In this document: in pieces, positions 1,245 through 1,351 of the stretch
Numbering within the stretch: position 1 is the stretch's first letter
Layout of the letters: the number at the start of each line of letters is the position of its first letter
Origin: Escherichia coli
GTDB lineage: Bacteria; Pseudomonadota; Gammaproteobacteria; Enterobacterales; Enterobacteriaceae
Length of the DNA: 11,574 nt
NCBI RefSeq assembly: GCF_003334315.1
Contig: NZ_QOWR01000085.1
Direction: 5' to 3' (one strand)
Made by a program: the position numbers and the translations under genes
Notes under the pieces: generated by a model
Seen by the model: the letters and a program-made list of their open reading frames with translations, nothing else
Database searches by the model: none
What the model was told of the DNA's origin: nothing

Positions 1245-1324
1245 TTTCTTACGTATAAACTGCTTCAATTTTGCTATGCTTCGCAAAGCTGTATCGCGAG
1301 GCGGATTGCAGACATGGACATCGT

Positions 1325-1351
1325 AAAAAAACCGCTTAATGCGGTTTTTTT
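1325..1351 (+). terminator. Rho-independent terminator (tR'-like, possibly bidirectional)
   Basis: AAAAAAACCGC-TTAAT-GCGGTTTTTTT: GC-rich stem flanked by an A-run and a T-run, about 80 nt downstream of the Q stop. Confidence 0.6.

Follow-up and report, generated by a model that had tools for sequence, protein, structure and literature searches.

Phage lambda provides the classical arrangement by which lambdoid phages control their late genes: a constitutive promoter (pR'), an element for the antiterminator protein Q, a pause and a short terminated RNA (see PMC9388147). A closer reference for the locus treated here is phage 21, for which we relied on the curated annotation of GenBank record OL657228 and on Yin, Kaelber and Ebright (2019, bioRxiv 10.1101/651190). 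Its -35 element (TTGACA) is followed by the two subsites of the Q-binding element (QBE), QBEu (ATTGAGCA) and QBEd (AATGAGCA), by the -10 element AACACT, by a start site located 1 nt ahead of the pause element, and by that sigma-dependent pause element itself (SDPE, TAAGCTG), after which comes the terminator. In some prophages the short RNA has attracted attention in its own right. StxS of the Stx phages is a short, regulatory pR'-tR' RNA that results from termination in lysogeny (Sy et al. 2020, PMC7547250), and IsrK of Gifsy-1 is a 77-nt RNA consisting of a 5' hairpin and a terminator, whose -35 element abuts the stop codon of the antiterminator gene and whose read-through feeds downstream genes (PMC4825925). 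A recent account of Q proteins recognizes three families (PF06530, PF03589 and PF06323), and the family DUF1133 is absent from it (PMC9388147). Here we analyze the region downstream of a DUF1133 gene in a stretch of 11,574 nucleotides of Escherichia coli DNA (assembly GCF_003334315.1, contig NZ_QOWR01000085.1; hereafter, the window). Our comparisons suggest that positions 1241-1351 are very probably a Q-dependent late regulatory cassette (pR', Q-binding site, pause and terminator tR') of a Rac-type prophage, organized like that of phage 21.

The cassette directly follows the putative Q gene, shares its strand and precedes the late (lysis and structural) genes. Its elements (Table 1) have the same order and nearly the same spacing as the -35, spacer Q site, -10, start, pause hexamer and terminator of phage 21, which implies that the hexamer conserved in DUF1133 loci (TATGCT in the window, TAAGCT in phage 21) corresponds to the phage 21 pause element. 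The geometry differs in that the -35 and -10 of the window are 2 nt nearer to this hexamer. Moreover, whereas the first hairpin in phage 21 is already the terminator, giving an RNA of ~50 nt, the predicted RNA of the window carries a separate 5' hairpin ahead of the terminator and reaches ~75 nt. With lambda pR'/qut/6S RNA/tR' the cassette shares the logic, namely a Q-binding element between -35 and -10, a -10-like pause element at the transcript start and a terminated short RNA, but it has no sequence similarity to lambda pR'; in addition, the Q protein of lambda is from an unrelated family (PF03589), binds DNA as a monomer and needs NusA, and the lambda RNA is 194 nt long.

A sequence-only reading of this DNA had expected a late promoter, a Q utilization site and a short terminated leader RNA between the Q stop codon and an A-run/hairpin/T-run terminator 80 nt further on. 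The correspondence to phage 21 pR' and the presence of the same architecture in 41 of 43 DUF1133 loci speak for this expectation; the described features are all present at their stated coordinates, and the proposed interval for the transcription start (1265-1290) contains the start that we predict (1276-1278). Other parts need revision. No convincing -35 had been recognized, although TTGATT, with its conserved TTG, overlaps the Q stop codon, so that the unit begins 4 nt before the left boundary of 1245. The hexamer TATAAA proposed as a -10 is indeed found at 1254-1259, but it exceeds chance in no way and is not conserved (relatives have CATAAA, CAGAAA, CACAAA or CAAGAA), for which reason we reject it as a -10. 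It falls within the spacer of the promoter, across the boundary between the two slots of the candidate Q-binding region (1247-1262). The -10-like pause element TATGCT had been missed.

Table 1. Features of the predicted late regulatory cassette and its antiterminator gene, in coordinates of the window
Feature	Position	Strand	Basis
Antiterminator gene; DUF1133 protein, 180 aa, remote Q21-family homologue	702-1244	+	ORF list, Pfam, hhalign, Foldseek, PHROGs
-35 element TTGATT, overlapping the Q stop codon TGA (1242-1244)	1241-1246	+	TTG conservation, correspondence to phage 21 TTGACA
Candidate specific Q-binding subsite TCTTACGT (QBEu position)	1247-1254	+	-28 to -21 from the pause hexamer, as in phage 21
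Second slot ATAAACTG (QBEd position), motif nnAAAnTG	1255-1262	+	Anchored alignment
-10 position TTCAAT, 17-bp spacer, preceded by TGc	1264-1269	+	Best sigma-70 match in the interval
Candidate SDPE TATGCT, with the predicted start inside	1275-1280	+	Conserved hexamer, phage 21 SDPE
Predicted short terminated leader RNA, ~74-76 nt	1276-1351	+	Two-hairpin fold
5' stem-loop, GCUUCGC / 11-nt loop / GCGAGGC	1278-1302	+	Minimum free energy structure
Intrinsic terminator tR': A7 (1325-1331), CCGC (1332-1335), loop TTAAT, GCGG (1341-1344), T7 (1345-1351)	1325-1351	+	

The conservation of this architecture was assessed on DUF1133 loci collected from genomes of E. coli, from phages and from a single genome for each Enterobacterales species; 43 of these loci were usable. 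In 41 of them, ranging from Escherichia to Yersinia, Providencia and Edwardsiella, a TTG-type -35 is followed by a 16-18 bp spacer, a -10-like hexamer and, 5-7 nt later, a TAnGCT hexamer, the TTG being placed 34-36 nt upstream of the latter; no DUF1133 locus was found in Salmonella among the species-representative genomes. The TTG keeps a fixed distance from the pause hexamer in all cassettes (as TTGATT, TTGCAA, TTGAAT, TTGACT or TTGACA) and is retained even where the stop codon does not include it. The hexamer holds its geometry in these 41 loci if TAAGAT (two loci) and TATCCT (two loci) are counted, and its T and A, which lie outside the RNA hairpin, are invariant. An intrinsic terminator occurs 45-108 nt past the hexamer in 37 of the 39 homologous loci scanned by script, built from at least 6 different stem sequences. 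In phage vB_EcoS-666R9, homology to the window runs from the Q gene to ~1303, some 60 bp past the Q stop, and then ceases, and a different hairpin and T-run take over at the same distance. Recombination joints fall between the elements of the cassette, a mosaicism that we count in favor of its identification. Within the species the combination is very common, DUF1133 and the conserved block being present together in 1,828 of 5,426 complete E. coli genomes.

In loci encoding DUF1133 variants of ~192 aa (L008, L014-L021, L023, L025, L026, L029, L032, L034, L036 and L040), the Q open reading frame (ORF) spans the -35 and the Q-binding slot and ends inside the -10 hexamer (TTGAAT or TTAAAT, with TGA or TAA as the stop codon). 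In these variants, the same bases consequently encode the C-terminus of the protein and its own putative loading site.

The designation of the upstream ORF as Q, already adopted in the sequence-only reading, is justified by remote homology to Q21 only, since its Pfam family is DUF1133 (E = 2.8e-107); the Q21 family Phage_antitermQ (PF06530) is matched weakly (E = 1.4e-4). A profile of 40 DUF1133 proteins aligned by hhalign with phage 21 Q over 132 columns, nearly the full length (97.4% probability, E = 1.5e-11), and a comparison with all Protein Data Bank sequences returned Q21 (6P18, 6JNX) as the sole significant match (E = 5.4e-10). An AlphaFold model (pLDDT, the predicted local distance difference test score, of 75) retrieved Q21 as its top 11 Foldseek matches, all with probability 1.00, the next match having 0.10. 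In PHROGs the protein falls in phrog_753, 'anti-termination protein Q-like' (E = 2e-79), while NCBIfam has no model for it and the RefSeq/NCBI pipeline names it simply 'DUF1133 family protein'. Judged from these profile and fold comparisons, the DUF1133 protein is a remote homologue of Q21 and not a member of Pfam PF06530. It differs from Q21 by its low identity (~23%) and by an extra helical segment of ~35-50 aa at roughly residues 40-90. Our literature searches with DUF1133, PF06576, phrog_753 and the sequence of the conserved block found nothing, and those on Rac-SA53 and EplBA found nothing relevant. The predicted cassette of a DUF1133 antiterminator is an undescribed member of a well-understood kind, expected downstream of a Q gene.

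A hint as to where this protein might bind comes from the promoter spacer. The predicted DNA-recognition helix (STCEKRIANWL, near residues 150-160) contains a conserved Thr-Cys and aligns with the DNA-reading helix of Q21. Across the 41 loci, the 8-bp slot (-28 to -21 relative to the pause hexamer) and the two residues next after this Thr-Cys sort together without exception. A helix of type TC-EK-R, as in the window, goes with the slot core TTACG; TC-E[ST]-R with TTGCGC; T[YCH]-Q[DN]-R with T[AG]CCG; TC-RN-R with TTA[TG]CC; and TC-RR-[RE] with TGA[GA]C. The last class includes Q21 itself, with its subsites ATTGAGCA and AATGAGCA, so that the solved Q21-QBE pair fits the pattern, and some DUF1133 members carry in the QBEu position a sequence, A[AG]TGAGC[CA], close to QBEu of phage 21. 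The slot also travels with the Q gene across recombination joints, apart from the rest of the cassette. Thus, the window and the E. coli LY180 locus (L006) are identical from -20 to +30 and differ in slot and helix; loci L015 and L008 have a common Q 3' end, -35 and slot followed by different downstream modules; and in locus L004 an RN-type slot, 111 nt from the Q stop, is joined to an otherwise EK-type cassette. Position and covariation together predict that Q binds at this slot. The adjacent second slot behaves in another way: its motif nnAAAnTG is similar whatever the helix type and does not track the helix, and its TG (1261-1262) occupies the position of an extended -10 TG. We discarded the idea that it is a direct-repeat subsite, TCTTACGT and ATAAACTG not being repeats of each other.

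A far-reaching extension of these observations would be that DUF1133 represents a large uncharacterized branch of the Q21 lineage with simplified loading. One protomer would recognize a single 8-bp subsite by means of the two residues after Thr-Cys, following a swappable code (RR/TGAGC, EK/TTACG, E[ST]/TTGCGC, Q[DN]/T[AG]CCG, RN/TTA[TG]CC), the helical insertion would replace the second Q21 protomer, and the 5' hairpin would help to lock Q on the transcript or stabilize the RNA. We put this forward as a speculative proposal, rather doubtful in its entirety.

The sigma-70 promoter implied by the -35 and -10 positions is a candidate with a non-consensus -10. We scored it with our own rough position-weight matrix, derived from approximate published base frequencies. 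TTGATT-17-TTCAAT matches the consensus at 4/6 and 4/6 positions, with TG at -15/-14 and no A at -11, and reaches 9.9 bits, the verified pR' of phage 21 obtaining 11.0; of the 23,076 positions scored in the window, it is one of the nine best. The -10 of the best sigma-70 site starts 10-13 nt before the pause hexamer in 38 of the 41 loci, and relatives in Yersinia, Providencia and Serratia have near-consensus promoters there (TTGACT-16-TATGAT, TTGACT-16-TATAGT and TTGACT-16-TAAATT). Counting six bases from -10 to start, as in phage 21, transcription is predicted to begin at about A1276 (range 1276-1278).

The RNA that would start there is predicted to fold into two hairpins (1276-1352, -26.1 kcal/mol, z = -3.27). 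The terminator region (1318-1352) folds at -14.1 kcal/mol (z = -5.9), none of 200 shuffles being as good, and the core stem alone contributes -8.1 kcal/mol. A consensus scanner did not list this terminator, presumably because its A/T arms lengthen the stem at the expense of the T tail. Both sequence classes of the family are predicted to form the 5' hairpin, which begins with the GC of the hexamer. Over 36 distinct sequences its median is -7.5 kcal/mol, compared with -3.5 for coding-region controls (Mann-Whitney p ~1e-8, for sequences that are not phylogenetically independent). RNAalifold recovered both helices from 20 units with a small covariation term (-0.54), and a MAFFT alignment of the hairpin was inconsistent with the structure; the support for the RNA structure rests mainly on the folding of individual sequences, and covariation is modest. 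The hairpin loop, AAGCTGTA, is strongly conserved and coincides with the position of the pause, which phage 21 spacing would put at about 1287-1291, ~10-11 nt past T1280. Its conservation may thus reflect a requirement at the DNA level.

This leads to the question of whether the short RNA is itself under selection, as a trans- or cis-acting small RNA (sRNA) comparable to StxS or IsrK, beside or instead of being a by-product of termination. There are precedents in StxS, from the pR' of Stx phages (PMC7547250), and in IsrK, from a promoter located after antQ in Gifsy-1 (PMC4825925); conservation extends to the 5' hairpin with its 11-nt loop (AAAGCUGUAUC), and the layout resembles the isrK model. 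However, the part between hairpin and terminator (1303-1324) is the least conserved of the unit, a DNA-level constraint at the predicted pause could explain the conserved loop, and the resemblance to isrK does not extend to homology. StxS, for its part, differs in the Q family involved, in deriving from a longer primary transcript processed to 74 nt and in its demonstrated Hfq binding. We consider such a selected function unlikely, and keep the by-product of a phage 21-like cassette as the preferred explanation.

The comparison with IsrK of Salmonella Gifsy-1 (RF01394; Hershko-Shalev et al. 2016) deserves some detail. Both RNAs have the same two-hairpin layout, but the AntQ encoded upstream of isrK is Q82-like and not DUF1133. 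The isrK model aligns end to end over 1278-1351 with 21.6 bits, below its gathering score of 50, whereas the genuine isrK of Gifsy-1 scores 79.3 bits. No Rfam family reaches its gathering threshold in 1245-1351, and we dismissed the weak matches to isrK, Thr_leader and AgrB as driven by the terminator. The Gifsy-1 isrK locus (L049, 34131-34329, - strand) also matches the Rfam models c4-a1b1 and C4 antisense RNA, in keeping with a P4/P1-like antisense system downstream of antQ, as suggested by the authors of the IsrK study (PMC4825925). Given the Q82-like AntQ, the C4/a1b1-type system and the low score, we reject IsrK as a homologue and retain it as an analogue.

Taken together, the elements, their geometry and conservation and the homology of the protein allow us to propose a sequence of events in which the point of initiation, pausing, the binding of Q and antitermination are predicted. 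Host sigma-70 polymerase would initiate near A1276 from TTGATT and the TTCAAT position. Sigma region 2 would then re-bind TATGCT on the non-template strand, making the polymerase pause after ~12-16 nt. In the absence of Q, the polymerase would resume and stop at the terminator, leaving the ~75-nt RNA with its 5' hairpin. Once accumulated, the DUF1133 protein would bind the promoter spacer, specifically TCTTACGT, and engage the paused polymerase, which would become resistant to tR' and to later terminators. Read-through would in turn lead to the expression of the downstream TolA-like, holin, lysozyme and Rz genes.

Several observations weigh against this scheme. On the protein side, DUF1133 has no equivalent of the loop in the helix-turn-[loop]-helix motif of Q21. 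On the side of the binding site, the QBE of Q21 consists of two directly repeated 8-bp subsites bound by two protomers, whereas the second slot of the DUF1133 loci is no repeat; furthermore, helix and slot are encoded within ~110 bp, so their correlation could be simple linkage. The gap between -10 and pause hexamer is 5 nt instead of the 7 nt of phage 21, as a result of which the predicted start falls inside the pause element. The stem of the terminator is short, with four G-C pairs only. Finally, TTCAAT has T and not A at -11 (C in the 18-bp register), and a generic promoter/terminator scan listed nothing in 1150-1350, hence no promoter at 1241-1269.

Lack of A at -11 is normally very damaging, and it raises the possibility of a relic cassette, in which the architecture would be inherited, the promoter inactive or very weak, little or no leader RNA made and the late genes no longer controlled. 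Rac-SA53 has TATCTT in exactly this slot, and TATGAT, TATAGT or TAAATT occur at an offset of 1-2 nt in other genera. The terminator core of the window is also weaker than those of relatives (-8.1 against about -10 to -11 kcal/mol), and the prophage is Rac-like, with trkG in its late region and many copies broken by insertion sequence (IS) elements. Against decay, five database entries submitted as phage genomes, those of vB_EcoS-666R9 and relatives, contain TTCAAT as well, which argues against simple degeneration, and it is found with three different Q-helix types. Besides, 446 E. coli records carry the block with an identity of at least 99%, neither the Q ORF nor the lysis genes are disrupted, and the crude promoter score approaches that of phage 21 pR'. 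A relic thus appears improbable to us.

A weak upstream -10 could otherwise mean that the true promoter lies further on, as an extended -10 (TGcTATGCT, 1272-1280) acting without a -35. The start would then be near 1287, the RNA would be ~65 nt long and devoid of the 5' hairpin, and TATGCT would not be a pause element. TATGCT does approach the -10 consensus better than TTCAAT, having T, A and T at the three key positions and a TG ahead, and this TG is present in 16 of the 41 cassettes, mostly those with a poor upstream -10. Yet it is missing in the closest relatives (L001, L003 and L005, with CGG, AGC and CTG) and in phage 21, whose hexamer is annotated as a pause element just past the mapped start. 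The conserved TTG lies 28 bp upstream of TATGCT and fits the upstream -10 slot instead. We find this reading very unlikely and continue to favor a phage 21-like promoter with its -10 position at 1264-1269.

The silence of the generic scan could also be taken to mean that there is no promoter at all, the hairpin and T-run ending the early-right (Q) transcript and the 60-bp block being a 3' untranslated region element or the site of another protein. In principle, a terminator could plausibly follow the last early gene. We do not accept the scan as evidence of absence because it likewise missed the obvious terminator, and the element-by-element match to phage 21 pR', the near-consensus promoters found at the corresponding position in relatives from Yersinia, Serratia and Providencia and the invariant T and A of the -10-like hexamer contradict this view. 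In addition, from what is established about lambdoid late regulation, a terminator between Q and its targets without a Q-loading site would block late expression. That the region lacks a promoter is, in our opinion, hardly credible, and a Q-dependent cassette accounts best for its organization.

The window belongs to a Rac-type lambdoid prophage of E. coli. A partial DUF1367 gene and DUF1364/ybcO (415-705) precede the DUF1133 gene. The latter is followed by a stretch of ~1 kb devoid of long ORFs and then by two TolA-like ORFs, essD, rrrD, Rz and trkG. All genes downstream of the cassette lie on the same (+) strand, including the lysis cassette, whose holin, lysozyme and Rz genes occupy 3458-4688. 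The potassium transporter gene trkG (4808-6283, +), a known hallmark of Rac prophages, is inserted between the lysis and the structural genes.

The interval between the terminator and the late ORFs holds further features. A hydrophobic 45-aa ORF (MLLVGQLVFLLQIITETSYSFGAVFFLQYCDNTLLAGVLIFLGRG; 1373-1510, +), starting 22 nt past tR', recalls orf45 downstream of IsrK in Gifsy-1. A possible second short transcription unit (1615-1700, +) comprises a promoter-like AAGACA-18-TATAAT (1615-1644) and a terminator-like hairpin, AACCGCCTGTTTAGGCGGTT, with a T-run (1672-1700), predicting an RNA of ~45-50 nt; the region matches no Rfam family and was not found in the phage collection. The top-scoring sigma-70-like site of the window (TTGAGC-18-TATAAT, 2230-2259, +, 12.6 bits with the rough matrix) is just upstream of the TolA-like ORF at 2289-2717, a location that suggests a promoter of this gene's own, Q-independent and moron-like. 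The only Rfam match above threshold in the window is a full-length STnc100 (1992-2178, +, 86.6 bits for a gathering score of 47), ~640 nt downstream of tR' and ahead of the first late ORF. A preprint of 2026 connects STnc100 with the prophage sRNA PasD; we set this preprint aside as unrelated to the leader RNA at 1276-1351. Phage mEp460_ev081 (LR597641.1) is 100% identical to the window from 2098 on, a point inside the STnc100 match, and as read from this alignment it is a mosaic joint within the STnc100 RNA gene. The sole match of region 1352-2100 to phages consists of 50 nt inside STnc100, so there is no evidence of an alternative Q cassette in that region. The window has no tRNA genes; elsewhere, such genes lie directly 3' of the terminator in E. 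coli LY180 (L006, 1842-1995; Thr, Gly), in Klebsiella phage KpF5 (L008, 3249-3321; Thr) and in phage 21 (L050, 1319-1474; Asn, Thr).

Some database entries concerning this family require caution. The gene ydfU of the Qin prophage, considered as a DUF1133 member, was rejected, the record being a 349-aa protein upstream of ydfT. No DUF1133 gene was present in the E. coli K-12 Qin region that we inspected, and K-12 transcript maps therefore do not apply to this cassette. A contig labeled as part of a metagenome-assembled genome of 'Candidatus Nanosynbacter' (L013, JARKOR010000130.1) encodes residues 1-149 of the window protein with 100% identity and is almost certainly E. coli contamination of that bin. 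The record 'Actinobacillus phage vB_Apl-pPE4' (PP818812.1, H7 and H80) has 88.9% nucleotide identity to the ybcO/Q region of E. coli Rac, unexpectedly close for a Pasteurellaceae phage, and its host assignment or assembly may be questionable.

If correct, the interpretation of this region as a phage 21-like cassette would locate the switch for the late genes in a prophage that is very common in E. coli and give a function to the poorly annotated DUF1133 family. It also predicts an unannotated RNA of ~75 nt that may be made in many E. coli, O157:H7 prophages included, which is relevant in view of the regulatory roles of the pR'-derived RNAs StxS and IsrK. Should Q-modified polymerase read through the terminator, trkG would be co-transcribed with the late genes. 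Beyond this prophage, the DUF1133 family offers a natural experiment on how Q proteins select their DNA, for which the solved Q21-QBE structure serves as an anchor and in which simple swaps of helix and subsite are feasible, with TCTTACGT as the predicted partner of the EK helix and AATGAGCC as that of the RR helix.

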